A stretch of 64,000 bases of DNA from a virus: positions 58,308 through 122,307 of the IMG/VR virus record IMGVR_UViG_3300033150_001569; one strand, 5' to 3'. The translations under genes and the position numbers were made by a program. Below the pieces are notes generated by a model. It did not search any database and was not told the DNA's origin. It saw only the letters and a list, made by a program, of their open reading frames with translations. Below, in pieces: positions 25,690-57,198 of the stretch (position 1 is its first letter; each line of letters opens with the position of its first letter).

Positions 25690-25690
25690 T

Positions 25691-30100: not shown

Positions 30101-32119
30101 ATAGAAACAATAGATAATGAAATTTATGATATTAATTGGATTGAAACTGAAATAACTAATGTATTAGATGGAACTGAAACTTTTTATATTAATCTTTTTC
30201 AAGATGAAAAAATAACAGAATTAGAATCAATAAATCAAGAAAATTATTCAATATTATTTTCTGAATCAATTTTTAATGATATCGAAATTTTAGAACAAGA
30301 AAATTATTTATTTTCAATTAATATAGAATTATTAAATGATATTTTTGATTTATCACAAGAAACTATTTCTATTTTATTAAGTGATGAATCATTTATTCAA
30401 ATTGAAGGTATTAATCAAGAAAATTATTCCTTCATTTTGATAGAAAATTTAATATCTGATATTGAATCAATTGAAAATGAAAATATTTCTAATTCTTTAA
30501 TTGAAAATTACTTAGCAGAAATATATTCTTTAAATAGTGAAATTTATTCATATATTTTATCAGATGATTCATATCTTAGCATTGAAACATTAGAAACAGA
30601 AAATTATAATATAAACTGGAATGACATAGATATAACTGCTGTATATGATGGTCGAGAAGTAATATATATTCAGCTTTTTGCTGAAAGTAAATTTAGTGAT
30701 ATAAGTACAATTAATACTGAAGATATAATTATATCTGTTTTAGATTCCTTTGAAGATGAACGTGAAACATCACATACAGAAAATTATTTATTATCAATAT
30801 TAGATTTAGAATTATATGAATTAATAGAATCAATAAATCAAGAAAATTATTCAATATTATTTTCAGAATTAGTTTTAAATGAACTAGATATTATTAATAT
30901 TGATATTTTTAATTTAACTTATAATGAAACATATTTATCTGAATTAAATATAATTTCTCAAGATAATTTTTCTTATTCATATAGTGATGATTATTTAAGT
31001 GAAATTGAATCATTAATTTCAGATATATTTAATTTTATCTATGAAGATTCTGATTTAATTGAAATAGAAAGTTTAAAATTAGATGAATTTAATTTTACAT
31101 ATATTGATAATTCATTAAGTTTAATAGAAACAATAAATAATGAAATTTATGATATTAATTGGATTGAAACTGAAATAACTAATGTATTAGATGGAACTGA
31201 AACAATTATTTCTGATTTATTCCAAGAAACAAAATTTACTGAATTAGAATCATTAATACAAGAAAATTATTCAATATTATTTAATGATAATAATATAGAT
31301 AATTTTGAAAGTTTAATATCTGAAAATTATTCTATATTATTGAATGAAACAATTATAAATAATATTTATGATTTAAATAGTGATAATTTTTCATATTCTT
31401 ATTTAGATTCATTATTGACAAATATTTATGATTTAAATAGTGACAGTTTTTCCTATTCTTATTTAGATTCAGTTTTAAATGAAATAAATATTATTGAAGA
31501 AGAAAATTATAATATTAATTTTATTGAAACAAAAATAGAAGAAATATATCAAATTAATTCAGATTCATTTTCATATTCTTATTTAGATCAAGATTTATCT
31601 GATATTTATGATTTAAATATTGATACTTCATCATTATCATTTATTGATTCTAATATTGAAGAAGTTGAAACTTTAATTCAAGATAATTATAATATTTCAT
31701 CAATTATTGATAGTAATTTTTATGATATTATAGATACTTTAGATAATGAAAATTATAATATAAACTGGAATGATATTGATATAACAGCAGTTTATGATGG
31801 TAGAGAAAGTTTTTATATTCAATTATTTGCTGAAAGTAAATTTACAGATATTACTGATTTAAATAATGATAATATAAATTTATCAATAAATGAACAAAAA
31901 ATAGATAGTTTAAATACTATTAAACAAGAAAATTATAATATAAATAATATTACAATATCAGAATATGATTCATTATATTCTTTAAATACAGATACATCTA
32001 GTTTATCATTTTTAGATTATTATGATGATACTGAAACTCAACTTTTTGGAACATTATATTCAAATGATGCAACAAATGTATCAAATAGCTTATATTATTT
32101 ATCAGCAATTTCATCATAA
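27191..32119 (+). CDS. Baseplate wedge (P2 tail-I-like) protein with very long acidic repeat extension
   Basis: N-terminal Fn3-like module, LLDIDNCPEYILPYISQFLG..RRAEL..IYKTKGT (tail-I motif), then about 1000 aa of D/E/N/I/S/L repeats. Confidence 0.8.
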   Translation: MAKLKSLYSTEASVSIPGSAIYEYLVRNLTVEATVEGPQILISFTNPTISNFLKVHIVRKLRSYPLSPTDGVKVYEGTGNVFSDRNIVGGQCYYYTVFVELDDGSIYYDVNFSTGFAISFSTGNMPDYAYESTVRHYKISDSKTPSRILEEVQTDKGDYVNINEETDKHQLQRYFKTTKVEFDRIKSLIEYSPTLLDIDNCPEYILPYISQFLGVDFNADIPIEARRAELKNIIGIYKTKGTPDSITNQLQNISKLDVGIQEYYKNILKSNRRDRTSAKFGPEWSLAIGLEGDPSVNSLNFDENGLYDWRKYGLWFLIDEEETLTKAVIDKTNRIIDKYEPANAIHLLGAYTEIEEDFTILVEDMFDDQFEYGFKFDLYTLDNEIIHIESFVDEWFTDITFIEYLDVLYDYDKVLISNIIDKVSNVALIQSADMITDAGIGGSLGRKLSDSFTNYNENGKFKYTDYPEINEDLSALKVLGQGWYHDDYSYGPYIETYLFDILEENLEEIDTDNNEDINTSITISEDTNVEFQIESLDIENINIITESNYDEIFILDSENYLISSISDGKKLDADTIFNELIYNKENWLYSNNIEKLSNDILIKSTQWIIDSYIDQQYYSGIGEESFTDAIDSEENLTTVENIYLENYDISNIIDEILNDPVQEINNENILSSNFIESSLNAIETLEEELLESTDDSWFTELYFATTPEMEENLGIIPFDQVMPDESESINQEIYSNIINEELINEINILPEDETILYSYLDSDLNELDILNNENYNLLSIIDNSVNEEINTLDIDSYNINWVDVDVTTIYDGREKIYTELFYVEKFSDIIDLNFENYSFFINDNNIDNIEFLNSEIYSFIINELSVNEDIESLIQDNFSFTFLDQELTELDKIDSDNYNLTASDYADLLIESENLESYSNIISEELLSEIYEISDDTITLSLFDSYLTESEKLDTENLGITIQEEIIPYIIETIDNEIYDINWIETEITNVLDGTETFYINLFQDEKITELESINQENYSILFSESIFNDIEILEQENYLFSINIELLNDIFDLSQETISILLSDESFIQIEGINQENYSFILIENLISDIESIENENISNSLIENYLAEIYSLNSEIYSYILSDDSYLSIETLETENYNINWNDIDITAVYDGREVIYIQLFAESKFSDISTINTEDIIISVLDSFEDERETSHTENYLLSILDLELYELIESINQENYSILFSELVLNELDIINIDIFNLTYNETYLSELNIISQDNFSYSYSDDYLSEIESLISDIFNFIYEDSDLIEIESLKLDEFNFTYIDNSLSLIETINNEIYDINWIETEITNVLDGTETIISDLFQETKFTELESLIQENYSILFNDNNIDNFESLISENYSILLNETIINNIYDLNSDNFSYSYLDSLLTNIYDLNSDSFSYSYLDSVLNEINIIEEENYNINFIETKIEEIYQINSDSFSYSYLDQDLSDIYDLNIDTSSLSFIDSNIEEVETLIQDNYNISSIIDSNFYDIIDTLDNENYNINWNDIDITAVYDGRESFYIQLFAESKFTDITDLNNDNINLSINEQKIDSLNTIKQENYNINNITISEYDSLYSLNTDTSSLSFLDYYDDTETQLFGTLYSNDATNVSNSLYYLSAISS
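29050..32050 (+). repeat. Intragenic degenerate tandem repeat (about 20 aa unit, higher-order INW..DG.E blocks)
   Basis: Recurring IExLxxENYSxxxxD/E unit; five INW blocks near 29585, 30130, 30610, 31155 and 31760; about 80 nt near-identical at 30101-30180 and 31124-31203. Confidence 0.8.
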
Positions 32120-32220
32120 TATAAAATATTTTTTATTTATTTTTAAAAAGTTACTTTAAATTATCTATTCTAAAATAGATATTTTCACCAACAATTAGAT
32201 TATTAAAAAAGAGGTTTATT

Positions 32221-32319
32221 ATGACTGAATATTTTTCAAAAGATGAAGTTTATAAAAAAGTAGATGAGGAAGAAACTTTAGATAAAGTCATAATAGATGG
32301 AGAAGAACAAGAATCTTAA
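32221..32319 (+). CDS. 32-aa acidic peptide, not in ORF track
   Basis: MTEYFSKDEVYKKVDEEETLDKVIIDGEEQES* with a GAGG RBS. Confidence 0.5.
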   Translation: MTEYFSKDEVYKKVDEEETLDKVIIDGEEQES

Positions 32320-32348
32320 TAATAACAATAACTTAAAGGAGATTAAAA

Positions 32349-32927
32349 ATGAAAGAAAGGGTAAATCTTGAAAATTTAAGTATTAAATTAGAAGGTCAAT
32401 ATCAAGATGAAATTTATCAAAAAGAGGAAAATGGTAAAGAAGTATTAGTAACTACACAATCTGGAAAAATTGATTGTTTTCCTTTTTGGAAAAATAATCT
32501 TATTGTTGATGTAGTTAAAGCATTATTAGCAGGTCTTTTTGCTAATGAATCTAGTTTTACTGGTGGTATTTTATATCATGCTTTGGGTCGTGGAGATGTT
32601 TCATGGGATACTACTGTTCCTGATCCTGGTTCTAGTGATGTTGCTTTATATGATGAACATTTTAGAAAATCTCCTGATTCTATAAATTATCTTGATGGTA
32701 GTAATAATGTTGTTTCTTTTAGTCATAGTGTGTCAAAAATCGAAGTAACTACTACTTTTGATTATGGTGATAGTGGAGCAGATGGTAGTATTCGTGAACA
32801 AGGTCTTTTTGGTGGAGATGCTACTGGAAGTCTTGATTCTGGAATTATGATTAATGCTATCAGACATAAAGAAATTTATAAAGATAATACAATTAAAATC
32901 GTAAGACGTATTAGAATTCAATTTTAA
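32349..32927 (+). CDS. Tail-fibre attachment / collar-like protein
   Basis: NLIVD..LAGL..YHALGRG..LYDEHFRK..TTTFD..IREQGLFGG..K; precedes the fibre gene. Confidence 0.7.
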   Translation: MKERVNLENLSIKLEGQYQDEIYQKEENGKEVLVTTQSGKIDCFPFWKNNLIVDVVKALLAGLFANESSFTGGILYHALGRGDVSWDTTVPDPGSSDVALYDEHFRKSPDSINYLDGSNNVVSFSHSVSKIEVTTTFDYGDSGADGSIREQGLFGGDATGSLDSGIMINAIRHKEIYKDNTIKIVRRIRIQF

Positions 32928-32964
32928 ATTTGGATAATTTTTATCATCCATTGTGTCGTCCTAA

Positions 32965-33006
32965 AAAAGAGCTAAGATTTAAAATTAATTAAATCTTAGC
33001 TCTTTT
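32965..33006 (+). terminator. Rho-independent (possibly bidirectional) terminator
   Basis: AAAAGAGCTAAGATTTAA-aattaa-TTAAATCTTAGCTCTTTT, an 18-bp perfect stem. Confidence 0.8.
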
Positions 33007-33031
33007 AATAAAATATTTTTATAAATTTAAT

Positions 33032-33202
33032 TTGAAAAAAATAAAAAAGAAAAAGAAAAAACAAATACCTAAGCATAACGGACAAGATTCAGAATTATTT
33101 AAAGAATTAATTAAAGAAGTAAGAAAATACAAAAAAGGTCCAGAAATTATTACTGAAGTTTTAAGACTAATACAAATTAAAAAAGATAAGAAGAAAAAAT
33201 GA
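33032..33202 (+). CDS. Small Lys-rich protein (56 aa), not in ORF track
   Basis: Open frame from TTG 33032 ending in an ATGA overlap with the next gene; the RBS is weak. Confidence 0.4.
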   Translation: MKKIKKKKKKQIPKHNGQDSELFKELIKEVRKYKKGPEIITEVLRLIQIKKDKKKK

Positions 33203-33969
33203 TTGAACATGGAATTCAACAAGAGTTTAAACCTCTTTTAAATATATCTAATTCATTATTATCATTAATTCAAAATAATGGTACTAATCCTAAAATTAGA
33301 GTAAGAGCAATTCAATTATTCAGTAAAATTACAACTGATGACCATAAAAATTTTTGGTTAAATATAATTGATAGTTCTAATAATGAAAAGATTCAATTTC
33401 ATTCAGTTCAAGCACTTAAAAAAATAAAATCTATTACAAATAAAGATATAATTCCATTATTAAATAATTTTTCTTCTTTACCAATAAAAAAAGCTTTATT
33501 TCAAATTTTAATAAATATTTATAAATTAAATAATAAAGATGATTTTTTATTTAATTATTTTCGCAAAGAAATGTATGAAATTCCTAATGAAACTCCTGAA
33601 ATTATAGAATATAAATCAGAATTAATCAGAAGTTTTATTGAATTAAAAGATATCAAAGTTATAAATTGTCTTTTTGAATTAATGTCTAAAGATAATTATA
33701 AATTTTATAATTATCAAGTTAATGCTTTAAAAATTTTTGAAAATTTTATTCATCCTTATTCACTTCAAAAATTATGTGAAGTTTATCAAATTGCTAAAGA
33801 TGATAAATTGAGGGAACTAGTTTTAATATCTTTGAATAATATGTATGACAAAGTTTATGAGAGAAAAAAGAAATTTGAAGAAGAAATTATAAAAAGAAAA
33901 ACTTTAGAAAATGTAATTAAAAATCAAATGAAAAATAAACTTCCCTTTAATGATATAAAAAATAATTAA
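33199..33969 (+). CDS. HEAT-repeat protein
   Basis: NPKIRVRAIQLFSKI, NEKIQFHSVQALKKI, DDKLRELVLISLNNM. Confidence 0.7.
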   Translation: MIEHGIQQEFKPLLNISNSLLSLIQNNGTNPKIRVRAIQLFSKITTDDHKNFWLNIIDSSNNEKIQFHSVQALKKIKSITNKDIIPLLNNFSSLPIKKALFQILINIYKLNNKDDFLFNYFRKEMYEIPNETPEIIEYKSELIRSFIELKDIKVINCLFELMSKDNYKFYNYQVNALKIFENFIHPYSLQKLCEVYQIAKDDKLRELVLISLNNMYDKVYERKKKFEEEIIKRKTLENVIKNQMKNKLPFNDIKNN

Positions 33970-33993
33970 TAATATATTAATGAGGAGACAATA

Positions 33994-36900
33994 ATGGGCG
34001 CAAGCACAGCTAATATATCACGAAATATGTATAACGAGGCCGAAAGATACATAATGAATTTAGTACAGCAGGGCGTACCTTGGGTAGATGCAGATGATAA
34101 TAGTCAATCACAAGGTTTCGTTAATCAAATTCAAAGATTAATTCAAAATACTTTTGGAAATGGAGCACCAGAAGGTAATGATGGTTTTAAAATAGAAGGT
34201 GATGGATCTTCAAATGATTTTACTGTTAAAGGTGGTGATGGAACGAATGAAGGTAGTGGTAGATTCTGGTGTGGTGGATATCCTGCAATGCTTTTATCAG
34301 ATGTTGATTTTTTAGGTGCTATTGATTCACTTGCTGGAAAAGGTGCTGATGAAATTACACATGTTAGTACAGGATTAACAGAAACAGTTTTAACTGATAG
34401 TGCTGCTAATTTTACTTTAGATGCTGATGGTTCAACAAATGCTAATAATCTTGCTGGTAGAATTTTAGTTCCTGATATTTCTCAACCTGCAAAAACATAT
34501 ACTATTGTATCTAATACCAAAACTACTATTACTATTTCAGGAACTATGTTGACAGATGGTATTCAAGCAGGTTCTAATTATCAAATTAAAATGTCAACTC
34601 CTAGTGGTTCTGATAGAAGTGATTATGTTTTTTTAGATGTTTATTTAGATGAAATTGGTGCTGATGAAGATCCTAATTTATATCATACATTAGGAAGTAA
34701 TATCGAAGCTCAAGTAAGATTAAAACTTATTCAAAATATTATAGTTGATCAAGGTCAACTTGCTACTACTGATTTTAGAGGTAGTGGAACTGATTGGAAA
34801 GAAAATGGTGGTACTTGGGTAGATGCTGATGGACGTAGACATTATACTCAGTTATTAGCAGAAATAGAAAGATATAATGCTCAAGACGCTATTAATGCAG
34901 TTGATGTTGTTGATAAAGGAAATCGTGAATGGGGTCAAACAGGAGCAGGTGGAGGAACAGATTTTGTAGCTAAATATGTCAGTAATGATCAATATAGAAT
35001 TCTTAAAACAAAAGGTCGTTTAGTAAGATTAAATAATAAATATTATAGTCTTGCTGCTGATTTATATATTAATTTTGATAAATCTGTAGATACTACTTGG
35101 TATATTTGTTTTGATACAACTAAAGCAGAAGGTGCAGTTGATGCAACATATTTTACAGAAACAAGATTAGATCCAACTAGTCCTACGTTTCCTCAAAGTT
35201 TAGTTCCTCTTGGAAAATATATTGTTAGTGGAGGAAATGTTACTAGTTCTAATTTTACTGAAATTTCAACTAGAGAATCTAATATAATACTTGGTGATTT
35301 AATTCCTTCTTATAATAGCTCAACTCAATATAGAGTACAAAATACTGATGGAAAGAAAATAAGATTAAATAATAAATATTTTAAATTAACCAATGATTTA
35401 TTAGTTAATTTTGATGTCTCTAGTGATGGTACTTGGTATATTTGTATTGATACTAGAAAAACTGAAGGTGAAATGGATGCAACTTATTTTCTTGAAACTC
35501 AAACTTCTCCAACCAATGCTAATTTTAATCCTGAATTTGTAGTTATTGGTGAATATGTTGTAGCAACTGGAGCAGTAACACAAGCAAATTTTGTAGCATA
35601 TAGTGATAGAGAAATGCTTCCTAAATCTGGATTAAATGATCTTATTCCTAATTATAAAGATGCAACTTATTATACAGTACAATCAAGTAAAAATAAAAAA
35701 GTAAATATTAATAATAAATTCTTTTATCTTGCAAGTAACTTAGATGTTACTTTTGATACAAGTTCAGATGGACAATGGTATATTTATTTTGATTCTAGTC
35801 AAGCAGAAGGTGCTATTGGAAGTTCTCATTTTGTAGAAAGTCAAACTGTTCCTAATTCAAGTGGATTAAATCCTTATTGGTTTGTAATAGGTGAATATCA
35901 AGTAAGTGGTAGTACAGTTGTTGAAAGTTCTTTTAATGGATATTCATTAAGACAAATGATAAGTTGGGTTTATGGAATAAGTAATATCAAAAAAGCTTCT
36001 GAAACAAAAACTTCTGCTGGAACTTATTCATTATCTCATGGATTTAATGCTACTCCTGAAAATGTAACTTATAGATATTGGGATGATAGTGAAAATAAAT
36101 TTTATAATTATGCAAGAACAGATATTGAAAATTATTATAGTAATACAATAATTAATTACACAATTCCAGGAGATTTTACATTTGATAGTGGAGATTATTT
36201 TGAAGTTATTGCTGAATATTATCATTCTGAAGGAAGTGGTTTTGCAAGTCCAAAAATTTCTGATGAAACAGATTGGTATTCAAGTACTCCAGGAACAACT
36301 ATTAGTCATAGTTTAACTTTAAGACCTAAAGCAATCACTTTAGAATTTTATGATGTTTCTAATAATATTTACTGGTTAGAAGATGGTAAACAATTTGTAA
36401 ATAAATCAAGTGGAGGTATTGAAGCTACTCAAGTTACTTTTGATTGGACAGGTCTTTCTTCAATTGCAATATTAAGTGCTAATATGAAAATGAAAATTCA
36501 CTTTGATTTAAGTGAAGTTAGTGCTGGTGCTTTTGCTGCAAGTAAAACAGAAAGAGGAACAGTTAAAGTATTAGGTGATGCTAATACAGTTGAAAGTCCT
36601 GATTTAATTTTAGATTCAAGTGATGCAGCTACTTTTGCAACTCAAATAAATGCTTTAGCTGACAATAGTTTTGTTTATATAAAAGAAAGTATTACTTTAA
36701 CTGCATTACAATCTATTAGTAAAGAAGTAAGAATATTTGCTGCAAAGGGAGCTAAATTAATTTGTGCTACAAGTTTAACAACTTTATTAAAATTTACAGC
36801 AATGCCTTGGATTCAAAGACTTGAAATTGAAACACAAGAAGATATTACAAATGCAATTGAATTTGATGCTAATGGAATTGCTGATAGTTTAGAATTTTAT

Positions 36901-37053
36901 CAAAATGCAAGTGGAAAAACTTTAACTAACACTGTTAAAGTAAATACTGGATATAAAATAAATGTAAGAGGAATTGCAATTGCTGAAGCAGGAAGTATTA
37001 CTAATTTAGATGGTTCGGATGCTGATGGAAATTCTGTAATATTAATTAATTAA
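33994..37053 (+). CDS. Tail fibre protein with DUF6519-like N-terminus and three tandem ~110-aa domains
   Basis: ANISRNMYNEAERY..LVQQGVPWVDADDN; repeats D[FL].[AP].Y...[LI]NNK[YF]..L..DL...FD.S.D..WYI.[FI]D starting near 34960, 35295 and 35638. Confidence 0.8.
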   Translation: MGASTANISRNMYNEAERYIMNLVQQGVPWVDADDNSQSQGFVNQIQRLIQNTFGNGAPEGNDGFKIEGDGSSNDFTVKGGDGTNEGSGRFWCGGYPAMLLSDVDFLGAIDSLAGKGADEITHVSTGLTETVLTDSAANFTLDADGSTNANNLAGRILVPDISQPAKTYTIVSNTKTTITISGTMLTDGIQAGSNYQIKMSTPSGSDRSDYVFLDVYLDEIGADEDPNLYHTLGSNIEAQVRLKLIQNIIVDQGQLATTDFRGSGTDWKENGGTWVDADGRRHYTQLLAEIERYNAQDAINAVDVVDKGNREWGQTGAGGGTDFVAKYVSNDQYRILKTKGRLVRLNNKYYSLAADLYINFDKSVDTTWYICFDTTKAEGAVDATYFTETRLDPTSPTFPQSLVPLGKYIVSGGNVTSSNFTEISTRESNIILGDLIPSYNSSTQYRVQNTDGKKIRLNNKYFKLTNDLLVNFDVSSDGTWYICIDTRKTEGEMDATYFLETQTSPTNANFNPEFVVIGEYVVATGAVTQANFVAYSDREMLPKSGLNDLIPNYKDATYYTVQSSKNKKVNINNKFFYLASNLDVTFDTSSDGQWYIYFDSSQAEGAIGSSHFVESQTVPNSSGLNPYWFVIGEYQVSGSTVVESSFNGYSLRQMISWVYGISNIKKASETKTSAGTYSLSHGFNATPENVTYRYWDDSENKFYNYARTDIENYYSNTIINYTIPGDFTFDSGDYFEVIAEYYHSEGSGFASPKISDETDWYSSTPGTTISHSLTLRPKAITLEFYDVSNNIYWLEDGKQFVNKSSGGIEATQVTFDWTGLSSIAILSANMKMKIHFDLSEVSAGAFAASKTERGTVKVLGDANTVESPDLILDSSDAATFATQINALADNSFVYIKESITLTALQSISKEVRIFAAKGAKLICATSLTTLLKFTAMPWIQRLEIETQEDITNAIEFDANGIADSLEFYQNASGKTLTNTVKVNTGYKINVRGIAIAEAGSITNLDGSDADGNSVILIN

Positions 37054-37067
37054 TTCGGAGATATAAT

Positions 37068-37569
37068 ATGAAAACGTTAAAATGGTTAACATTAATAATA
37101 ATATTAATATCATTTGATATTTATGCTGTAAAACTTCCTGATATTAAAACTGAAAAATTAAATGGCGTAGAATTAGTACAAACAAACCAATATCTAACAG
37201 AAAATGATTTTCCAGATAGCGCTAATCATAATGGTAATCTTTTTGGATGGCGCGCAGGAACTAATGAAGGTGATAATTTTGTAACAGTTTATGGCGGACA
37301 AGATTTAACAGAGGAAGGAAGCACGTCATTAACTACTGGAACAGACCAGTTAGGAAATACAACTGCTCATGTTTTTGATGGGACTAATGATTGGTTAAGT
37401 AATTCAGGACACAACAGATTTAGAAGCTGTTTATAGTTATCCAAAAATCATACACTTAGAAAAGAAATCATTTGTAGATGTTAAAGCTTATATTGGTGTT
37501 ATTGGTGGTACAGTAACTTCTAGAGATTTACATGATGGATTTTTTATTGCTACAAAAATATCTGATTAA
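37068..37569 (+). pseudogene. Internally deleted / frameshifted paralog of the secreted LamG fibre gene
   Basis: Signal peptide plus the start of the LamG-like domain in frame 0 (stop 37436). The +1 frame from about 37400 reads DTTDLEAVYSYPKIIHLEKKSFVDVKAYIGVIGGTVTSRDLHDGFFIATKISD* (37569), a C1q-like C-terminus. Confidence 0.6.
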
Positions 37570-37581
37570 TTGGAGGATAGA

Positions 37582-38943
37582 ATGAAACAAATTATACAAT
37601 TATTTTTAATATTACTAATGATAGCAAATATAGTTAACGCAAGAGATGTAGTTAGATATAGTCAAGATGAAAATAGTAATTATATTATTAAAACAAAAGA
37701 ATCTGGTTCTCTTGTAGAACAAATTAAAATAGGTAATGGAAGTGTTAATATAAGTGGTGATTTAAATGTAACTGGAGATAGTAATTTAACAACATTAAGT
37801 GGGATAAAAATAATTAAATCAGATCAATACATAATCTCTTCTGACTTTTTTTTTGACAATAACTGGAATGGCAATGTGTTTTGTTGGAAAGCTACAGCTA
37901 ATGGACTAAAGCCAAGCGTCGGCAATATTAATTTGACACTAGTTGGAGATCCACTAACAAGTATAGTTGATCATTTGGGCAATAATGTAAATGCACGATT
38001 TAATGGATCAAGTTATTATTATACAGATGATAGTGTATTTAATTTTAATGGTAATTTTAGTGTTTTAGTAAGAGCTTATAGGGATGATTGGAGTAGTAAT
38101 TACGGAACTGGAGGCGAGATATTTGTGTCAAAATTTAGTAATTTAGCTGGCTCTAATTTTGATGGGTGGGCTATTGCCGGAAGAGACGGAGGTTCAACTA
38201 TTACTGATTTTTTAGCTCAAAATAATAATATACAAACCGAATATGATACGAAAGATTTTGATGGTAGAAAAACACTAATATTCACAAGAGATTCGTCTTA
38301 TTCAGCAATGATTAATGACGGAACGGTAAATGTATATAATAATAAATCTACCCCATTTTTAGATAATGGAAATTTTACGATAGGTGCAGTAGAGTCTTAT
38401 GGTCAGTTAAATTTTAACAACGGAGCGATATTTGAAGTTTGCGTACATAAGAACTATACCTGGACTCCAAACCAAGCAAGGTTATTAGATTGTCGTGGAA
38501 GTGGAGAATTTTGTACGCAGAATAGGGATGGTGAGGTTTATGTGAATGGTAAACAGCAAGTTAATATTTTAATAGAACCAGGAAATTTGACTGGCCAAAA
38601 TAATAATACATATAATACTTATTCCGGTTGGAAATTATATATTCCTGAAAATGGAGAATATAAAATTAGTGCCGAATATTCAATAATAATTGGAGATACT
38701 AGTGGAGATGGAACAACATATTTTACATTTAAGTTTGCAAAAAATGGAATTTCTATACCGGTAGCGAACCTTACAAATGGGTTTGTTGGAGTTACCGGAC
38801 ACGAGTATCGCCCTAGTGAAACATTGTTTTTTAAAGGATTTTTAAAGTTGAATGATTATTTTGAGCTGGGGGGGTATTTGAATGATTATCAAGACACATG
38901 TACTATCCGCAGTAGAGCAGGAATGCTTTTAGAAAAATATTAA
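37582..38943 (+). CDS. Signal-peptide-bearing fibre/adhesin: beta-shaft + LamG-like lectin + C1q/BclA-like tip
   Basis: MKQIIQLFLILLMIANIVNA|RD; GSVNISGDLNVTG; FNFNGNFSVLVRAY..IFVSK..NFTIGA..GAIFEV; LYIPENGEYKISA..LKLNDYFEL. ATG 37582 follows GGAGG; visibly higher GC. Confidence 0.7.
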   Translation: MKQIIQLFLILLMIANIVNARDVVRYSQDENSNYIIKTKESGSLVEQIKIGNGSVNISGDLNVTGDSNLTTLSGIKIIKSDQYIISSDFFFDNNWNGNVFCWKATANGLKPSVGNINLTLVGDPLTSIVDHLGNNVNARFNGSSYYYTDDSVFNFNGNFSVLVRAYRDDWSSNYGTGGEIFVSKFSNLAGSNFDGWAIAGRDGGSTITDFLAQNNNIQTEYDTKDFDGRKTLIFTRDSSYSAMINDGTVNVYNNKSTPFLDNGNFTIGAVESYGQLNFNNGAIFEVCVHKNYTWTPNQARLLDCRGSGEFCTQNRDGEVYVNGKQQVNILIEPGNLTGQNNNTYNTYSGWKLYIPENGEYKISAEYSIIIGDTSGDGTTYFTFKFAKNGISIPVANLTNGFVGVTGHEYRPSETLFFKGFLKLNDYFELGGYLNDYQDTCTIRSRAGMLLEKY

Positions 38944-39062
38944 CTACCAAGAATAACGATTGGCACGATAGTGGCGGGGGTTATGACGATATAAAGCTTT
39001 ATATGAAACAAGATATAATGTAACCGTAACAAAGGATTAGTATAATTAACGAGGTTTTTATT

Positions 39063-39812
39063 ATGAATAAATTATTTTTATTGTTAATTTTAATAATTTC
39101 TGGATGTGCTTCTGATTATAGATTTATTCCAATGCCACAAGTTGAAAATATTGATGAAGTAATAGGAGTTATTGATAGTAATTTAGATGATTATGGACTT
39201 ATTAATTGCGGTGTTAATACATATTATAGGACTGGATATTATTTGGTTGCTTTAGAAAAACATAATAAACTTGATGCTGATAGGGTACAAGGATTTTGCG
39301 ATGCTTTAGAATTATCAAAATTCAATGGTGGATTTAAAAGGTACCCTGATTATGATGAAACTAAAGAAGATGCCTTATGTACCAGGGATGACTATAAACT
39401 TATATGGTTAGCACTTTTCTACGGTAAAAAGTATCATCAATGTGCCACAGATTTGTTAACATATGCATCTGAAAATTCAAAACTTGCAAAAGATGTATGG
39501 TTAGGTTTTGCTTCTTATTATAAAAGAATTTTTAAAAATGGTAATAGTGCACCATTGGCAGATATTGATACATTCATAAGGGCAAAGATTACATGTTCAA
39601 AACCAATAAATGAAACTTCTGATAAGTTATTATTTGCTCCTGAATTAATTATTGCAAGAGATGTTACACCAACTTATTATTCTAATAAATCCGATAGTTT
39701 TTGTCATGATAAGGTTGATTTTAATTATGCATTGGATGTTTATTATGGTGAAAATAGTCCAGATTGTCCATATTGTGGAGATTTTAAACAATTATTAAAG
39801 GGTTTACTGTAA
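39063..39812 (+). CDS. Cys-rich lipoprotein
   Basis: Lipobox MNKLFLLLILIISG|C; many cysteines. Confidence 0.7.
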   Translation: MNKLFLLLILIISGCASDYRFIPMPQVENIDEVIGVIDSNLDDYGLINCGVNTYYRTGYYLVALEKHNKLDADRVQGFCDALELSKFNGGFKRYPDYDETKEDALCTRDDYKLIWLALFYGKKYHQCATDLLTYASENSKLAKDVWLGFASYYKRIFKNGNSAPLADIDTFIRAKITCSKPINETSDKLLFAPELIIARDVTPTYYSNKSDSFCHDKVDFNYALDVYYGENSPDCPYCGDFKQLLKGLL

Positions 39813-39840
39813 TGTAGAAAAAATATTACGAAAAAATTAT

Positions 39841-40074
39841 ACAAAATTAAGAAATTATTTTAATAAATATCAAATGGAAGATATAGTTGGTTATACAATA
39901 AATCAATTAAAACAAAGATTATAAATTAATTTTCAATATTGTATTACAATTGATAATCATAAACCTATTTTTCATTTTAATTTTACATCTTATAAAGATA
40001 AACAATTTAAATTATATTGGTCATTAGCAAATTTACAATTATTATAAACAAAAGATAATAATTTTATAGATTAA
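39841..40074 (+). pseudogene. Decayed HNH homing endonuclease
   Basis: Single frame with internal stops: MEDIVGYTINQLKQRL*INFQYCITIDNHKPIFHFNFTSYKDKQFKLYWSLANLQLL*TKDN, matching the GY..LK.HL...IDHI.P..F.F......F..CW.L.NLQPL...N family pattern. Confidence 0.7.
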
Positions 40075-40092
40075 ATAATCATAGGAAATATT

Positions 40093-40551
40093 ATGAGTAT
40101 AAAACGTAAAAAAGATGAAAAAAAAATTATAGAACATGCAGAAGTTCAAAAAGCAATTCTTGAAATAGTTAGAGAAGATCAAATTAAATTAAAAAATTCA
40201 GTTGAAGAATTAACTAAGTCAGTAATTGAAACAAATTCAAATCAAAAAAATATTTCTACAACTTTAGAAGAATTAAAAATTGATATAAAAGATAATTATA
40301 TTGATTTAAAAAAACAAATAAATGGTAAATATAAAGATTTAGATGAAAGAGTTGATGAAGCTAATAATAAAATTGATACTGAAATAACAAAAAAAGAAAC
40401 AACATTTAAGGTTATAGCTTTTATAGTAGTATTACTTACAATTATAAGTCTTAGTTTAACTATAACATTTAATTATAAAAGAATTAATAATTTTAATTCA
40501 ACAAAGACAATATCAGAATTACCAATTCCCAATGCTAGTGCAGGGAATTAA
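40093..40551 (+). CDS. Coiled-coil protein with C-terminal transmembrane helix (XhlA/holin-associated-like)
   Basis: Long heptad region followed by VIAFIVVLLTIISLSLTITF. Confidence 0.55.
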   Translation: MSIKRKKDEKKIIEHAEVQKAILEIVREDQIKLKNSVEELTKSVIETNSNQKNISTTLEELKIDIKDNYIDLKKQINGKYKDLDERVDEANNKIDTEITKKETTFKVIAFIVVLLTIISLSLTITFNYKRINNFNSTKTISELPIPNASAGN

Positions 40552-40583
40552 TATTTTTAAATTTATATTAAAAGGAGATTAAA

Positions 40584-40877
40584 ATGGACGAGAAAAAAGG
40601 AATTAAAGAATTTATGGAAATTTTGGAAGCTGCAAAATCTATTACTTTTACATCATTTGATGCTTTCAAAGATGGATTTCAACTTGATGATTTGGCAAAA
40701 TTTGGTCCTTGTTTTACAAAAGTAAAAGATGCAATTAAAGGTTATAAAGAAGTTATTCCAGAATTAAAAGATATAGATCAAGAAGAAACAGAAGTTATTG
40801 CAGTATTTGCTATTAGATTTGCATATGGACTAAAAGATAAAATTAAAGAATTGAAAGAAGCAAAAAAAGAAGTTTAA
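40584..40877 (+). CDS. Hypothetical protein (lysis region)
   Basis: Strong AAGGAG RBS; followed by a terminator. Confidence 0.65.
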   Translation: MDEKKGIKEFMEILEAAKSITFTSFDAFKDGFQLDDLAKFGPCFTKVKDAIKGYKEVIPELKDIDQEETEVIAVFAIRFAYGLKDKIKELKEAKKEV

Positions 40878-40925
40878 GTTGTTGAATAATTAAAAATAAC
40901 TTATCTACCATGTGTAGAAAAAGCT

Positions 40926-40957
40926 AAAGGGAAGTGGGTTATCCTACTTCCCTTTTT
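40926..40957 (+). terminator. Rho-independent terminator
   Basis: AAAGGGAAGTGGG-ttat-CCTACTTCCCTTTTT. Confidence 0.8.
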
Positions 40958-40972
40958 ATTATGGAGAATATT

Positions 40973-41239
40973 ATGACAGATTTTCTTAAAAAAATTACAG
41001 GATTTGAATTTTTTATGAAAAGTAAAAGATTTTTTATAACAGCATTTTCAATATTATTTATATCTATTTTGTCAATTATAATATTTTTTAAAACTGGTAA
41101 TATTCAAATAGCACAAACTGCATTTCAATTTGTTAGTTATATTGCTATGACTTATTTAGGATTACAAACTGCATCAGACAAATTAAGTGATTGGATTAAA
41201 GGAAAAAACGATAATAATAACAATAACTTAAAGAAATAA
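40973..41239 (+). CDS. Putative holin (2 TM)
   Basis: KSKRFFITAF..TM1..TM2..YLGLQTASD with a charged tail; ATG 40973 follows GGAG (the track's GTG lies inside the terminator). Confidence 0.6.
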   Translation: MTDFLKKITGFEFFMKSKRFFITAFSILFISILSIIIFFKTGNIQIAQTAFQFVSYIAMTYLGLQTASDKLSDWIKGKNDNNNNNLKK

Positions 41240-41302
41240 TTGACATTTTTAAATTTATAGATTATATATTTAATATAATACTATTAATTAGAAGGAGTTA
41301 TT

Positions 41303-42388
41303 ATGAAATTTAAAAAATTAAAACAAATAATTCTAATATTATTAACATTACCATTATTAATATCTTGTTCTCATTGCAATCAACATTTAAATGATGATAT
41401 AGCACCATCACCTAGTAAACATAATTATCATAGATTATTATTTAATGTTCATAAAAATAATAAAACAATATTACAAACAGGTATTGCTAATATTAGTATT
41501 AAAGAAGGTGAATCAATTAATGATATAGGAATAGATATCTATGGATTTTATACAGGTAAATTAATTATTAGTTCTGAAAATTGTTTATTTAATGAGCTTT
41601 ATACTCGTTATACAGGTGATCAATATATTCCAATTTCTTCATTAATGCCAAAACAAGATATTAAATATCGATGTATTTTTAGTTTTGAACAATCTCCAGA
41701 TCAATTAAGTGATAAAGAAGATAGAGCACATTTTATAAAATTAATAGGAAAGGTTGAAATAAATTATATTGCTGATACAGAAGATAGTAAATATGAACCT
41801 TCTAAAATAGAATACATACAAGCCAATAGCACCTATGATGGTACTTATTTAAAATTATATTCATTTGAAGGTCAAGGAAGTATACAAATGTTAGGAGGAA
41901 AAATTGGAATGTATAAATCTTTCAATGTTATTACTCCTAGTAATTATGGAAAGATTATTTTAAAAGGTTGTGGTAATGATCATCAAAGAAATTATAATAA
42001 TCAAATTGAAAATATAACTTTTAAAGAAGTTTTTGGTAAAGATAATATTAATACTAATGATTCTTGTTTACTTGAAATAACTAGTATTCCAGGAGAAGAT
42101 TTACCTAATTATACTTCTAGATTTGATATTAATATTTATAGTGATAGTGTTGTCAGACTCGAAGAACCTCAAATAAAAATTATAAAAAAGAGATGGAGAA
42201 AACCTAAATTAGTTATTAAAAGTATGGATTATGTAATTGCTACTAAAATAAATAATAAAGAATATCTTGGTAATTATGTTAAAATCAAATATGATAAAAA
42301 TAAAGAATATCTTATTATCATTTATACAAAAGTAGGTCGTAGTCGTGCGTTAATTTATAAAAATGGTAAAATTTTATGGAGGGAATAA
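41303..42388 (+). CDS. Beta-rich lipoprotein
   Basis: Lipobox LLTLPLLIS|C; several cysteines; AAGGAG RBS. Confidence 0.7.
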   Translation: MKFKKLKQIILILLTLPLLISCSHCNQHLNDDIAPSPSKHNYHRLLFNVHKNNKTILQTGIANISIKEGESINDIGIDIYGFYTGKLIISSENCLFNELYTRYTGDQYIPISSLMPKQDIKYRCIFSFEQSPDQLSDKEDRAHFIKLIGKVEINYIADTEDSKYEPSKIEYIQANSTYDGTYLKLYSFEGQGSIQMLGGKIGMYKSFNVITPSNYGKIILKGCGNDHQRNYNNQIENITFKEVFGKDNINTNDSCLLEITSIPGEDLPNYTSRFDINIYSDSVVRLEEPQIKIIKKRWRKPKLVIKSMDYVIATKINNKEYLGNYVKIKYDKNKEYLIIIYTKVGRSRALIYKNGKILWRE

Positions 42389-42391
42389 ATT

Positions 42392-42835
42392 ATGGATTTT
42401 GGTTTAATAAAAATAATACTTCAAATAATAATTAATATTGTAAAGTTCTTTTGGGATATATGGGCAAATAAAAAGAAATATGATAAAGAAGAACTTGAAT
42501 TAAAAAATAAACATCTTAATGAATTAGTAAATCTTTCAAAAATGCTTACTATTCGTAATAAAGAGCTTGTTATACAAAATGAAAAAGATTTTCTTGCAAA
42601 TCTTACAGAAGCAAAAAAAATTCGTTTTAAAGAATATAATAATTTTATTCTTGAAGCTCTTAATAAAGGTAGTACTTGTATGCAGTTAAGAGAAATAAAA
42701 CAATTAGGAATTGGGCGGCGTGTCATAGTTTCAATTGAATCAAATGATGAAATTATTAATATTGTAGGAGATAAATTCAAAACTAACGAACAGAAAGCTC
42801 TTGCTATCTCTGATATAATAATCAAAATAAAATAA
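42392..42835 (+). CDS. Membrane-anchored coiled-coil protein
   Basis: N-terminal hydrophobic helix followed by a charged helical region. Confidence 0.55.
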   Translation: MDFGLIKIILQIIINIVKFFWDIWANKKKYDKEELELKNKHLNELVNLSKMLTIRNKELVIQNEKDFLANLTEAKKIRFKEYNNFILEALNKGSTCMQLREIKQLGIGRRVIVSIESNDEIINIVGDKFKTNEQKALAISDIIIKIK

Positions 42836-42945
42836 TTCTTATTATAAATCTTATTATATTTCATATTATTTTTCTTATTATGTAATTTAATATATTTTAT
42901 AACATATTAATATTATTAAAAATATTAAATTTTTTAATATTTTTC

Positions 42946-42974
42946 TTGACAAAATATTTAATATTTGTTATACT
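42946..42974 (+). promoter_or_regulatory. Sigma70-type promoter with extended -10
   Basis: TTGACA (42946-51), 17-nt spacer, TGT-TATACT (42969-74); flanked by AATATT-containing inverted repeats. Confidence 0.85.
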
Positions 42975-43020
42975 GTAAACATATTAAGGAAAATAATAAA
43001 AAATAATTACGGAACGTATT

Positions 43021-43206
43021 ATGAAAAATCCTATTCTTGATAAGATAAGAAAAAAGAAAAAAATTAAGAAAATTCCAAAGAGTATTTCTATTACAAATAT
43101 TATTTTAGATAAATTAATATATCATTGTGATACTGAAGAAATAGATGTAAGTGAATTAACAGAAGAATTATATATTGAATATTTAGAAAAAAATAAATTA
43201 TTATAA
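43021..43206 (+). CDS. Ribbon-helix-helix DNA-binding protein
   Basis: KIPKSISITNIILDKL...DVSELTEELYIEYLEK. Confidence 0.65.
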   Translation: MKNPILDKIRKKKKIKKIPKSISITNIILDKLIYHCDTEEIDVSELTEELYIEYLEKNKLL

Positions 43207-43217
43207 TAGGAGAACAT

Positions 43218-44162
43218 ATGCAATTATCAAAAGCACAAGAATATATTATAGGTATAATAAAAGAAACAGGAGAAGTAACAGCACAAAAATTAGCAAAAAT
43301 ATTATTTCCAAAAGATATTAATCAATATGGATATGCAACTCCCGAATCCAGTTATAAAGTAGCTTCAATTTTAGATAATTTTGTAAATTCACATTTATTA
43401 ATTAAAAATGATGGTAATTATTCAATTAAAAAGGAGGAAGTTATGGAAATAAATACTGAAATAAGTTATAATACATTAGCAGATTTTAAAGAGAATGTAT
43501 CAGATGAAGAAATAACATTTCATGATTTAAATAATGATTTTGCTATAATTTTAACAAATTTAGATATGTTAAGCAAAGAAGAAGAAATTCCAGAAAAATT
43601 TAGAAAAAAATTAGCAAAAATTTTTGATAGAACAAAAAAATGTTATAAAGTAATAAAAGATAATATTTTTGATTCATTTGAAAAAAATATTAATATCGAT
43701 ATAATAATTAAAGATATTTTATCAGAATGGGAATTAAGTGAAGTATATTTAACTAAAAATATAAATAATTTAAAATTAAAAACCAAACCAAAAATTATTA
43801 AAAGTATTATTAGAAATATGGTTTCAAATTCAGTAAGAGAATTACAACAAATTAATTCAACTAAAAAATTGTCAATAAGTTGTGGTATTGAAAATAATAA
43901 TAATGTAATAATAATAGAAGATAATGGAAAAGGAATTAAAGAAGAAGATCTTGATAAAATATTTAAAAAAGGTTATAGCAAATATGGTTCAAGTGGAAAG
44001 GGATTATGTTATTGTTATAATAAAATAAAAGAAATGGGTGGTAAATTACATGTTTCATCAAATACTCTAGAAAGAAGAACTAGTTTTACAATAATATTAC
44101 CAATAAATATAAAGAAGAAAAATAATCATGGTACTAATAAAAGTATTTCTAATACTGAATGA
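43218..44162 (+). CDS. Winged-HTH - histidine kinase (HisKA-like + HATPase_c) fusion
   Basis: N-terminal LSKAQEYIIGIIKETGEVTAQKLAKIL; H box FHDLNN; N box NMVSNS; G1 EDNGKGI; F box IFKKGYS; G2 SGKGL; no TM helix. Confidence 0.8.
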   Translation: MQLSKAQEYIIGIIKETGEVTAQKLAKILFPKDINQYGYATPESSYKVASILDNFVNSHLLIKNDGNYSIKKEEVMEINTEISYNTLADFKENVSDEEITFHDLNNDFAIILTNLDMLSKEEEIPEKFRKKLAKIFDRTKKCYKVIKDNIFDSFEKNINIDIIIKDILSEWELSEVYLTKNINNLKLKTKPKIIKSIIRNMVSNSVRELQQINSTKKLSISCGIENNNNVIIIEDNGKGIKEEDLDKIFKKGYSKYGSSGKGLCYCYNKIKEMGGKLHVSSNTLERRTSFTIILPINIKKKNNHGTNKSISNTE

Positions 44163-44438
44163 TTAAAGTTTCCCTTTTTCAAATATAAATAAATTACAAT
44201 TTAAAGTTTTATATAAATATTTAATTAAATTTACAAATTCTAAATTTTCTTCTTTTAAATCTTTTAATTCTAATTCTTTTAATATTTTATCAATATCAAT
44301 AATATATTTAAATTGATTATTTTTATTATTCTTTATTTTTATTAAATTATATAATTCTTTTCCTCTTGTTTTAATTTCTAATGAACTATAAAAATATTTA
44401 ATTATTAGATCTTTCATTTTAATTTCATCAATTATCAT
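44163..44438 (-). CDS. Hypothetical protein
   Basis: GAGG RBS; its stop codon abuts the kinase stop codon exactly. Confidence 0.6.
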   Translation of the reverse strand: MIIDEIKMKDLIIKYFYSSLEIKTRGKELYNLIKIKNNKNNQFKYIIDIDKILKELELKDLKEENLEFVNLIKYLYKTLNCNLFIFEKGKL

Positions 44439-44473
44439 AAATACCTCTATAAAATTTATTGTTTATTTATAAA

Positions 44474-45040
44474 TTAATTATCCTTATTTAAATAAGTAAT
44501 TATTCCATTAGTAATTGAATTAGAAATTTTTATTTGATTTTCAGGATTTAATAAATATTTTAATTCATTTTTATTTGACATAAATCCACATTCAATCAAA
44601 CATGATGGCATTTTTGTATTTTTTAAAACATATAAATTACTTCTTTCTTTTAAACCACGATTATTTAAATTAATATTTTTTTCTAATTCATTTAAAATAA
44701 TATTTGATAAAATTTTTCCATCATTAGAATTTGTATAATATATTATTTCAAATCCATTAGCAGATACAATTTTACTAGCATTATGATGTATACTAACAAA
44801 TAGTGTTGAATTTATTGAATTTGCAATTTTACATCTATGATTTAAAGATAAATATTCATCCATATATCTAGTCATATATACAGAATAATTATAATTTGAT
44901 AATTGCGAATAAATTAAACTAGCAATTATAAGATTAATATCTTTTTCATTTATATTATTATAAATAGCACCAAAATCATCACCTGAATGTCCAGGATCTA
45001 ACATTATGATTTTATTATTTTTTTTATTGTTTATAGTCAT
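44474..45040 (-). CDS. N-acetylmuramoyl-L-alanine amidase (Amidase_3), probable endolysin
   Basis: IMLDPGHSG, EKDINL, FVSIHHNA, LYVLKNTKMPSCLIECGFMSN. Confidence 0.95.
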   Translation of the reverse strand: MTINNKKNNKIIMLDPGHSGDDFGAIYNNINEKDINLIIASLIYSQLSNYNYSVYMTRYMDEYLSLNHRCKIANSINSTLFVSIHHNASKIVSANGFEIIYYTNSNDGKILSNIILNELEKNINLNNRGLKERSNLYVLKNTKMPSCLIECGFMSNKNELKYLLNPENQIKISNSITNGIITYLNKDN

Positions 45041-47147: not shown

Positions 47148-47321
47148 ATTTTCTTGTTATATATGGTATATCATCACTATTTTAATAACCTTTATTAATA
47201 GTATATTTTATTATTTTTTTTTACAATTTTCACAAACAATACGATCATAATTATAACTTATATTTTGTTTATATCCACAATTAATACAAATAATGTAATT
47301 TGTTTTATATATATACTTTAC

Positions 47322-47873
47322 CTATTTAATTTTTTTAAATACTGCTTCAAATGAATATTCATTAATAATTCCAGTTGAATGAACTAATTTTAAATTACCC
47401 ATTTTATTTGTAATATCAATTAAATATTCTAAACTAAAATTATTTATTTTATGTGCAACATTAGGTAGTGAACCTCTTTTTTCACATGATTTAACATAAG
47501 CTATTTGATTTGGCAAGTAAAGTGCTATATAACCATTAATCTTTACAATTCTTTGCCATTCTTGTAATATAGATTCTGTATTTAAAAAATCTTCTAATGT
47601 ATGCGAACTTACAATATAATCTAATACATTATTTTGAAACCAATAAAGATTTCTACAATCACCTGCTAAATGCTGAATATCATTTCCAGTATAAGCATAT
47701 GCTTGTGGTAAATCCATATTTATAGAATTTTTATTTATTGCATAACCACCAAATCCAATTTCTAATCCCATTCCCTTTAAATAAGTTTTGAATTTTTCAC
47801 TTACTTTATTTGATTCTGGTTGATAAGATTTATCTTTATGTTTTGGATTAAATCCATTAAAATTATTTTCCAT
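47322..47873 (-). CDS. Class I SAM-dependent methyltransferase (type 11)
   Basis: GLEIGFGG, DYIVSSHTLED, LQEWQRIVKINGYIALYLP. Confidence 0.9.
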   Translation of the reverse strand: MENNFNGFNPKHKDKSYQPESNKVSEKFKTYLKGMGLEIGFGGYAINKNSINMDLPQAYAYTGNDIQHLAGDCRNLYWFQNNVLDYIVSSHTLEDFLNTESILQEWQRIVKINGYIALYLPNQIAYVKSCEKRGSLPNVAHKINNFSLEYLIDITNKMGNLKLVHSTGIINEYSFEAVFKKIK

Positions 47874-48852: not shown

Positions 48853-48853
48853 A

Positions 48854-55884: not shown

Positions 55885-55890
55885 AATTCC

Positions 55891-57116: not shown

Positions 57117-57149
57117 TTAATTTCCTTTTATTCAAATCTATTTATGCTT

Positions 57150-57177: not shown

Positions 57178-57198
57178 GTAATAATTTAAAAATTTAAA

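Follow-up and report, generated by a model that had tools for sequence, protein, structure and literature searches.

Does a tailed phage send one of its host-recognition proteins through the Sec pathway? According to the textbooks, the cytoplasm is where all parts of a tailed phage fold and come together. The question is raised by two adjacent genes at positions 37068 to 38943 of a 64,000-nucleotide stretch of DNA from an uncultured virus, called the window here, which covers bases 58308-122307 of the 122,307-base IMG/VR record IMGVR_UViG_3300033150_001569. The record is classed as linear, its CheckV completeness is 67%, and the guanine-plus-cytosine content of the genome is 22.8%. The two genes are called open reading frame (ORF) A and ORF B. 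The protein of ORF B starts with a leader of signal-peptide type and continues into two domains that were modelled as a LamG-like lectin and a TNF/C1q-like tip. These folds are ordinary for phage receptor-binding proteins; an export signal on them is not. We read ORF B as an exported, virion-bound receptor-binding protein with a cleavable Sec signal peptide, transcribed late in infection, and hold this reading at a little less than even confidence.

Leaders, folds and family of the tandem lectins

ORF A (37068-37436, plus strand) encodes 122 residues, made up of a predicted signal peptide (residues 1-20), a 10-residue linker and the first third of a LamG domain. Its N-terminus reads MKTLKWLTLIIILISFDIYA|V, where the bar marks the predicted cut, and a GGAG lies 7 nucleotides upstream of its start. 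ORF B appeared in the list of reading frames with a TTG start at 37570, but its true start is the ATG at 37582, which has a Shine-Dalgarno sequence (GGAGGA, 37572-37577) 4 nucleotides before it; the frame runs to 38943 and gives 453 residues. The predicted signal peptide of ORF B spans 37582..37641 on the plus strand (residues 1-20, MKQIIQLFLILLMIANIVNA), with the cut placed before R21. Divided into regions, this leader reads MK / QIIQLFLILLMIANIV / VNA|R, and that of ORF A reads MKTLK / WLTLIIILISF / IYA|V. In both, an n-region containing Lys leads into some 15 uncharged, hydrophobic residues, and small residues occupy -3 and -1; both thereby show the layout of leaders handled by Sec and signal peptidase I, in which a basic n-region precedes a hydrophobic core of roughly 10-15 residues and the residues at -3/-1 are small and uncharged. 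Neither has a lipobox, as no Cys stands at or near the cut.

The leaders were called with a heuristic of our own, a hydropathy and charge rule as distinct from a trained predictor. It was positive for 8 of the 163 ORF N-termini of the genome, for 0 of 289 internal Met positions and for 64 of 8150 shuffled proteins, and these low rates at internal Met positions and in shuffled proteins mean that the AT-rich composition is not the cause of the signal-like N-termini. Four of the eight cluster within 37068-42388. The residue at +1 of the predicted cut is R in ORF B, V in ORF A, T in a 647-residue protein encoded shortly before the window and D in a DUF481 protein.

A preliminary description of this DNA had noticed two paralogs with classical signal peptides, one intact and one decayed, and both observations hold. 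The leader layout and the -3/-1 residues were found in both proteins, which are 32% identical over 82 residues (expectation value, E, of 3e-9), and ORF B is an intact frame. ORF A is 39% identical to residues 62-141 of a relative, P0004. Its alignments to family members by tblastn stop near 37415, about one third into LamG, and a hidden Markov model (HMM) of the tip domain, run over the six frames of the window, matched ORF B as its sole hit and nothing downstream of ORF A. ORF A is therefore a truncated copy, and probably a dead paralog. A remnant of the tip domain in another frame after the ORF A stop had been read by eye; it was dropped when neither tblastn with 10 family members nor the tip HMM supported it.

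Searches of Pfam, PHROG, NCBIfam and the PDB sequences gave no match to ORF B, with 0 Pfam families at E <= 0.1. The protein matched nothing by sequence among cultured phages, and a word-indexed search of 5.8 billion proteins returned only ORF B itself. The whole protein was modelled with AlphaFold2 on a 24-row alignment of its family, with a mean predicted local distance difference test (pLDDT) of 76 and a predicted template modelling score of 0.73. In the model, residues 2-19 form a helix; three short, low-confidence strands come next, then a domain modelled well (about residues 75-322), and the C-terminal domain is less confident. The strands belong to a beta-rich segment directly after the signal peptide (residues 21-52), which is followed by a low-confidence linker (residues 53-74); together these occupy 37642..37803 on the plus strand, with pLDDT of 37-61. 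The linker carries VNISGDLNVTG, which the preliminary description had read as a fibre-shaft motif. This candidate motif occurs as a single instance in ORF B; a loose pattern made from it matches three times in a long fibre homolog, P0010.

The next domain (37804..38547, plus strand, about residues 75-322, pLDDT mostly 75-97) had been recognised as LamG-like, and structure comparison agrees. In the VIA comparison it aligned best with domain 4 of the arabinanase AbnA (5ho0_A; Z 20.6, root-mean-square deviation 2.9, 195 residues aligned). It gave Z of 15-19 to neurotoxin HCN domains (their lectin-like halves), CBM40 domains and pentraxins, the first two groups lying at 17-19, and among phage proteins it matched the tailspike of cyanophage Pan3 (Z 17.4) and CBA120 TSP2 (Z 14.5). 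The top Foldseek match was the receptor-binding domain of mycobacteriophage TM4 gp23. The Pfam family PF13385 (Laminin_G_3) is matched by 14 of the 24 family members, the best at E 2.4e-62, with ORF B itself below the gathering score; a genome-wide search with the PF13385 profile gave 0 matches. As modelled, the middle domain of ORF B is a curved two-sheet jelly roll of the LamG/ConA-like kind.

The tip (38548..38943 with the stop codon, plus strand, about residues 323-453) was modelled separately from the last 140 residues, with a pLDDT of 77. Its best VIA match is the Photorhabdus TNF-like lectin PLTL (9ib6_A; Z 12.8, root-mean-square deviation 2.4, 122 residues aligned). Further matches are EDA-A1 (Z 11.1), the short tail fibres of cyanophages A4 and A-1(L) (10.9 and 10.7), the Bdellovibrio fibre tip Bd2734 (8okw_C, 9.7), and BclA and C1q (9.3-9.8), with 64 chains at Z >= 8. 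Foldseek placed the central spike knob of phi812 on top and gave a probability of 1.00 to C1QL, BclA and EDA. By this model the C-terminal domain is a compact TNF/C1q-like jelly roll of about 130 residues, and the fold part of the C1q/BclA-like trimer tip that the preliminary description proposed is confirmed. The families matched by the tip are all trimeric, and by analogy with them ORF B is probably a trimer too.

Relatives were collected with a full HMMER scan of 1.84 billion representative proteins, which gave 22 proteins at E <= 0.001 including ORF B (7 of them at E <= 1e-10; range 1.9e-18 to 1e-3); a profile search added 2 more, for a family of 24. The family is rare. All members share the LamG core, which ends in G-x-I-x-E/D-V-x-x-H...T...Y-A-R-G, an ending that we take to be a LamG hallmark. 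After this core come at least three unrelated types of C-terminal tip, and the type of ORF B ends in K-D or K-Y. ORF B forms the longest branch of the LamG tree (1.8) and still keeps the conserved core motifs of the family.

Six of the 24 carry a signal-type leader (ORF B, P0004, P0006, P0008, P0011 and P0015). Their maximum 10-residue hydropathy is 2.7-3.3, against at most 1.4 in the other 18, so the two classes stand sharply apart. Small residues occupy -3 and -1 in all six, though the relatives are only about 22-26% identical to ORF B, and only P0008 among the relatives has Q at +1 (C|Q). The same LamG and tip pair is found at the C-terminal end of signal-less proteins, including P0009 (851 residues), P0010 (1153 residues), P0013 and P0019, whose N-termini we take to be phage-tail-fibre-like. 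In the signal-bearing forms the leader takes the place of this long fibre N-terminus and is not added on top of it.

The signal-bearing forms do not make up a single clade in the LamG tree but are interleaved with the fibre-borne ones. P0009, a signal-less fibre, falls in a group with P0011 and P0015, and the signal-less P0013 and P0022 fall in one with P0008. The well-supported branches force at least two label changes; the maximum-likelihood tree needs four, a number that 34 of 500 label shuffles do as well. The interleaving indicates that signal-bearing and fibre-borne versions draw on one pool of binding modules. The preliminary description had offered disulfide formation as the reason for export, and this part fails: mature Cys counts (5, 1, 4, 2, 1 and 13 in the six signal-bearing forms, 1-6 in nine signal-less forms counted) do not separate the two classes.

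Position behind the tail genes and a conserved downstream cassette

The genes for the head (an intein-containing terminase, portal, prohead protease and an HK97-type capsid protein) precede the window, and a contractile-tail module occupies the plus strand of the window from 4358 to 37053. It encodes a sheath, two gp19-type tubes, a tape measure and a CIS tube protein, and in its baseplate and hub part gpD-like, gp5/V-like hub, gp25 and J proteins, a 1642-residue P2-I-like protein and a 1019-residue protein. No close cultured phage was found, the best tblastn match of the sheath being 33% identical over 75% of the query. ORF A starts on the same strand 14 base pairs after the last gene of this module.

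This last gene (33994..37053, plus strand) encodes the 1019-residue protein, which the preliminary description had called the main fibre. Its position agrees, and its identity as a fibre does not follow from the searches: the protein has no Pfam or PHROG family and no tblastn match in 50,697 phage records. Atlas leads point to DUF6519 and beta-helix depolymerases, all scoring below 0.9, so that position and these leads make it weakly fibre- or spike-like. Its N-terminus is not signal-like by our hydropathy heuristic.

Transcription of the tail genes probably continues through ORF A and ORF B, because no terminator-like site lies before 40926 on the plus strand. The hairpin at 40926..40955 (plus strand; a 13-base-pair stem followed by a T run) is the sole such site on the plus strand in 32000-44500, and it is a consensus match only, since the scan gave 2 sites in all where 1.8 are expected by chance. 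A scan for promoters gave 114 where 105 are expected, which says little in DNA so rich in AT.

Directly after the lectins comes a cassette of small envelope-type genes on the plus strand. The first (39063..39812) encodes a lipoprotein with the lipobox LIISGC, for which no family was found in Pfam, PHROG and further family searches. It is followed at 40093..40877 by a 152-residue protein with a C-terminal membrane helix (tail-anchored) and a 97-residue acidic protein (at 40584), and after the hairpin, at 41303..42835, by a second lipoprotein (361 residues, lipobox LLISC, at 41303) and a 147-residue protein (at 42392). The Atlas leads for the second lipoprotein are all below threshold. A protein with about two membrane helices is also encoded in the cassette. 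The stretch 39063-42835 could be a lysis or envelope cassette, or it could supply periplasmic partners of the lectins.

The same arrangement is seen in a second phage. A 31-kilobase IMG/VR contig (G001, 18% complete) carries P0011 and P0004 side by side as tandem signal-bearing paralogs with different tip types, and after them four genes homologous to genes of the window, their order unchanged (28-48% identity). These are the first lipoprotein (28% identity, E 4.8e-16), the 97-residue acidic protein (42%, E 1.3e-5), the second lipoprotein (48%, E 1.4e-107) and the 147-residue protein (33%, E 4.9e-14). Four homologs in order after a lectin pair mean that a unit of two signal-LamG-tip genes, a lipoprotein, small proteins and a lipoprotein is conserved in two divergent large phages, and that within it the lectin genes evolve much faster than their neighbours. 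The preliminary description had proposed to check homologs for retention of the leader and synteny with fibre genes. The leader is retained in the six members named above, while the synteny found is with the lipoprotein cassette, P0011 being cut by the start of the G001 contig on the upstream side.

Other searches for this neighbourhood returned little. Scans of viral contigs with single proteins gave no matches for ORF B, P0006, P0015 or P0008 and placed P0011 and P0004 on one contig, and scans anchored on the second lipoprotein gave the G001 contig or nothing. A metagenome scan with P0006 found only 3 short, distant loci, and genome scans with P0015 and P0008 found nothing.

Replication and envelope-related genes occupy the minus-strand half. 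Among the latter, the Amidase_3, GT9 heptosyltransferase-like and signal-bearing DUF481 genes point, in our reading, to a diderm host. It probably does not belong to the Bacteroidota, because the predicted cuts of ORF A, ORF B, the 647-residue protein and the DUF481 protein lack Q at +1.

Several further features of the genome were recorded. The envelope genes on the minus strand (window 45024-48897 and 55198-55884) encode a 707-residue GT9 heptosyltransferase-like protein, a methyltransferase, a polysaccharide pyruvyl transferase and the DUF481 protein, which is of outer-membrane type. A histidine-kinase-like protein of 314 residues (HATPase_c, E 7e-18) stands at the end of the plus-strand block (window 43218-44162). 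The 647-residue protein (record 55567-57510, about 0.8 kilobases before the window) has no Pfam family; it lies between the head-completion genes and the tail module and starts like a signal peptide (...FIANTALA|TP), which makes it a second predicted export signal inside the structural block. The P2-I-like baseplate protein (window 27191-32119) has a conserved N-terminal part; the rest consists of long degenerate repeats that are strongly acidic and in which E, D, N, I and S abound. A 132-residue protein between the J and P2-I-like genes (window 25559-25957) has a KhpA/B-type KH domain (RNA-binding; E 1.2e-14), and a 1439-residue protein of the baseplate block (window 17265-21584) has Reg_prop (two-component regulator propeller) repeats. 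The intein, with a LAGLIDADG-type homing endonuclease domain, interrupts a 555-residue protein just upstream of portal (record 43760-45427), which we take to be the large terminase.

Destination of ORF B

Export of ORF B is likely, because the leader layout and the -3/-1 rule are kept in all six signal-bearing members at low identity and because the leader replaces the fibre N-terminus. On our reading the protein would be exported via Sec to the periplasm of a diderm host, where signal peptidase I would cut it after VNA. The mature protein would fold there into a sugar-binding lectin, probably trimeric, with LamG capped by the TNF/C1q-like tip. It would enter the adsorption apparatus of the virion only when the envelope opens at lysis, docking by its N-terminal segment. 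The final destination is the most conditional of these steps.

Several observations point to the virion. The LamG and tip pair is a module of receptor-binding proteins, and the matches of the modelled folds include phage fibres and spikes. The gene lies at the end of the tail block, and receptor-binding cassettes typically show tandem copies with different tips, together with a decayed copy. In ORF B, residues 21-52 are 47% identical (15/32) to P0011, against 24% for LamG and 18% for the tip, and this greater conservation is the pattern that a conserved docking end and a variable binding end may leave in the sequences.

The odds for this reading were raised by two cultured phages of Cellulophaga baltica. 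In phi18:3 (NC_021794) the proteins gp085-087 are annotated as 'virion structural protein', 'structural protein' and 'tail protein', and in phi10:1 (NC_021802) gp091-094 are annotated as 'structural protein', 'virion structural protein', 'pectate lyase' and 'tail fiber protein'. The GenBank records of all seven carry the note 'annotation based on experimental MS/MS proteomics analysis' (MS, mass spectrometry), and all seven have a canonical signal peptide followed by Q. The notes thus place leader-bearing proteins among those detected in virion preparations of cultured phages. A signal peptide is absent from the upstream phi10:1 gp088-090 and from the portal and terminase of phi18:3. The next phi10:1 protein, gp095, is a 'pectate lyase' annotated by similarity and not by MS; it too has a signal peptide and then Q, so that five consecutive genes of the fibre block have leaders.

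Other points weigh against a place on the virion. A full-text literature search found no description of such an assembly route, or of tailed-phage fibres or receptor-binding proteins that carry Sec signals; in passages of PMC3426561 and PMC3517404 the term occurs only in passing or in reference lists. The signal-less 1019-residue protein stands separately at the fibre position, and adsorption may be possible without ORF B. In P0015 and ORF A the segment between leader and LamG that could dock is missing, and the segment of ORF B has no match elsewhere in the phage, in G001 or in the word-indexed protein search. R or K at +1 (ORF B, P0011, P0006) is atypical of well-exported Escherichia coli proteins. 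The conserved block of lipoprotein and membrane-protein genes that follows is the usual company of envelope-acting, non-virion proteins, and a protein found by MS in a virion preparation, as the Cellulophaga proteins were, need not be attached to the particle.

The reading can be widened to a second, extracytoplasmic branch of virion assembly in some tailed phages, beyond the Bacteroidota, in which receptor-binding lectin tips would pass through Sec, mature as periplasmic trimers (perhaps held by neighbouring phage lipoproteins) and be added to finished particles only at lysis. We regard this wider proposition as possible, though short of probable.

The strongest alternative, which we consider unlikely but serious, is that ORF B is exported and never joins the virion, acting instead on the envelope of the infected cell or on lysis debris together with the lipoprotein cassette. 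It could bind and mask the surface glycan used by phages, for superinfection exclusion or to protect progeny from debris, or serve the infected cell as an adhesin. A signal peptide is the usual mark of a non-virion phage protein, half of the signal-like N-termini of the genome fall in this one region, and two lipoprotein genes and several membrane-protein genes directly follow, in an order kept in G001 at 28-48% identity. P0015 and ORF A, without a docking segment, would suit this role as well. Sec-exported, fibre-like proteins with TNF-like tips do exist on cells, as the MAT fibres of Bdellovibrio described in passages of PMC10769870 illustrate, and the Bd2734 tip is among the fold matches of ORF B. 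Likewise, in passages of PMC10367356, a paper on Porphyromonas phages, signal-bearing phage proteins are read as envelope modifiers.

Against an envelope role, a periplasmic protein would need a further export step to reach an outward-facing receptor, and no such signal is seen. ORF B lacks the lipobox of Llp and Cor, phage proteins that do act on receptors. The genes appear to be co-transcribed with late tail genes and not with early genes, and tandem paralogs with swapped tips resemble receptor-binding-protein cassettes. A decoy of the phage's own receptor-binding protein was considered and rejected on the ground that 122 kilobases hold no signal-less copy of the module to mimic, a weak argument with one third of the genome missing. 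The preliminary description had left two functional options, a virion fibre or an adhesin or decoy displayed by the cell, and each has gained some support: the former from the fibre modules, the position and the Cellulophaga records, the latter from the cassette and the MAT fibres.

An improbable alternative is that ORF B is not exported at all and is a cytoplasmic tail-fibre tip, its N-terminal helix serving for transient membrane tethering, trimer nucleation or burial in a fibre junction. Known tailed-phage fibres all assemble in the cytoplasm, the LamG and tip pair is a fibre module, and exported proteins seldom have a basic residue directly after the cut, as is predicted here (A|RD, A|KD, A|KD). 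This account leaves unexplained why the n/h/c layout and the small residues at -3/-1 persist in every signal-bearing member, and why the leader stands in place of the long N-terminus of the fibre relatives. Uncharged runs 15-20 residues long, polar at their ends, also look more like signal peptides than like anchors.

Very improbable is a decaying acquired cassette with no current role, of which ORF A would be the first casualty and ORF B the next: ORF A does stop about one third into LamG, and ORF B is the longest branch and lies below every Pfam threshold, but ORF B retains an intact 453-codon frame with a strong Shine-Dalgarno sequence, confident domain models and the core motifs of the family, and G001 has intact orthologous pairs. 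What probability remains belongs to something else.

If a signal-bearing host-recognition protein does sit on the particle, the last step of its assembly takes place outside the cytoplasm. This would change how fibre genes are recognised in metagenomes, where signal peptides are now used to exclude structural proteins, and how host range is engineered, as such fibres might need periplasmic expression. It would also change the link between lysis timing and infectivity. If the protein acts on the envelope instead, a receptor-binding-protein module has been reused as a masking or adhesion factor, which would also be new. The preliminary description had called either outcome an unusual system, and this is to be tempered: signal-bearing structural proteins already stand, without comment, in GenBank records of cultured phages, and what is out of the ordinary is the export signal on receptor-binding-protein folds.

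Comparison with known systems

The Cellulophaga phages are a precedent in culture. Like the window phage they are tailed, have a diderm host and carry signal-bearing genes at the distal end of the tail or fibre block. There is no detectable sequence relation, as ORF B and P0008 match nothing in the 50,697 phage records, and phi18:3 gp085-087 have no Pfam family. All seven proteins and gp095 have Q at +1, following the Q-rule of the Bacteroidota, whereas ORF A has V and ORF B has R. The records do not mention the leaders, and no paper discussing them was found in the literature search.

Signal-less fibres and spikes, namely P0009, P0010, P0013, the receptor-binding domain of TM4 gp23 (9n6a), the A-1(L) and A4 fibres (8ke9/9k09) and the Pan3 tailspike (9vyh), share with ORF B the same two folds, in the same order, at the C-terminal end. 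They differ in having long fibre N-termini or none and no signal peptide, where ORF B has a signal peptide and about 50 residues instead.

TNF-like lectins and C1q-like spore proteins are all trimers, and the lectins bind sugars at protomer interfaces. The fold of the ORF B tip is shared by the lectins PLTL (9ib6, the best match) and the N-terminal domain of Burkholderia BC2L-C (2wq4) and by the spore proteins BclA (1wck) and ExsFA (7r1m). These are stand-alone or collagen-linked proteins, not phage proteins, and at no more than 12% identity to the ORF B tip they are likened to it by fold only.

T5 Llp and Cor of phi80 and N15 are phage-encoded, exported and act on the receptor, and they are the model for an envelope-acting ORF B. 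Unlike ORF B, which has no lipobox, they are small lipoproteins that carry one, and they lack receptor-binding-protein folds. Two of the genes downstream of ORF B do have lipoboxes.

The MAT (mosaic adhesive trimer) fibres of Bdellovibrio bacteriovorus (Bd2734, Bd2439), as far as passages of PMC10769870 describe them, have a signal peptide, a conserved beta-rich N-terminal part directly after it and a swappable tip that can be TNF-like. They are cellular proteins of about 1,000 residues, with an N-terminal domain of about 130 residues and long beta-helical shafts, displayed on the predator cell, and their likeness to ORF B is one of fold and layout. ORF B is phage-encoded, has 453 residues and a LamG domain, and shows only about 50 residues between signal peptide and LamG in place of the 130-residue domain and long shaft. 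By this analogy the MAT fibres may be a good structural counterpart for an exported, envelope-acting ORF B.

In Porphyromonas phages, finally, signal-bearing proteins of unknown function that obey the Q-rule are reported in passages of PMC10367356. Set beside the Cellulophaga and Porphyromonas cases, the window phage is contractile-tailed and very AT-rich, and its leaders have non-Q cuts. It adds to them a clean two-domain protein, a compact LamG with a TNF-like tip, that is small enough to test.

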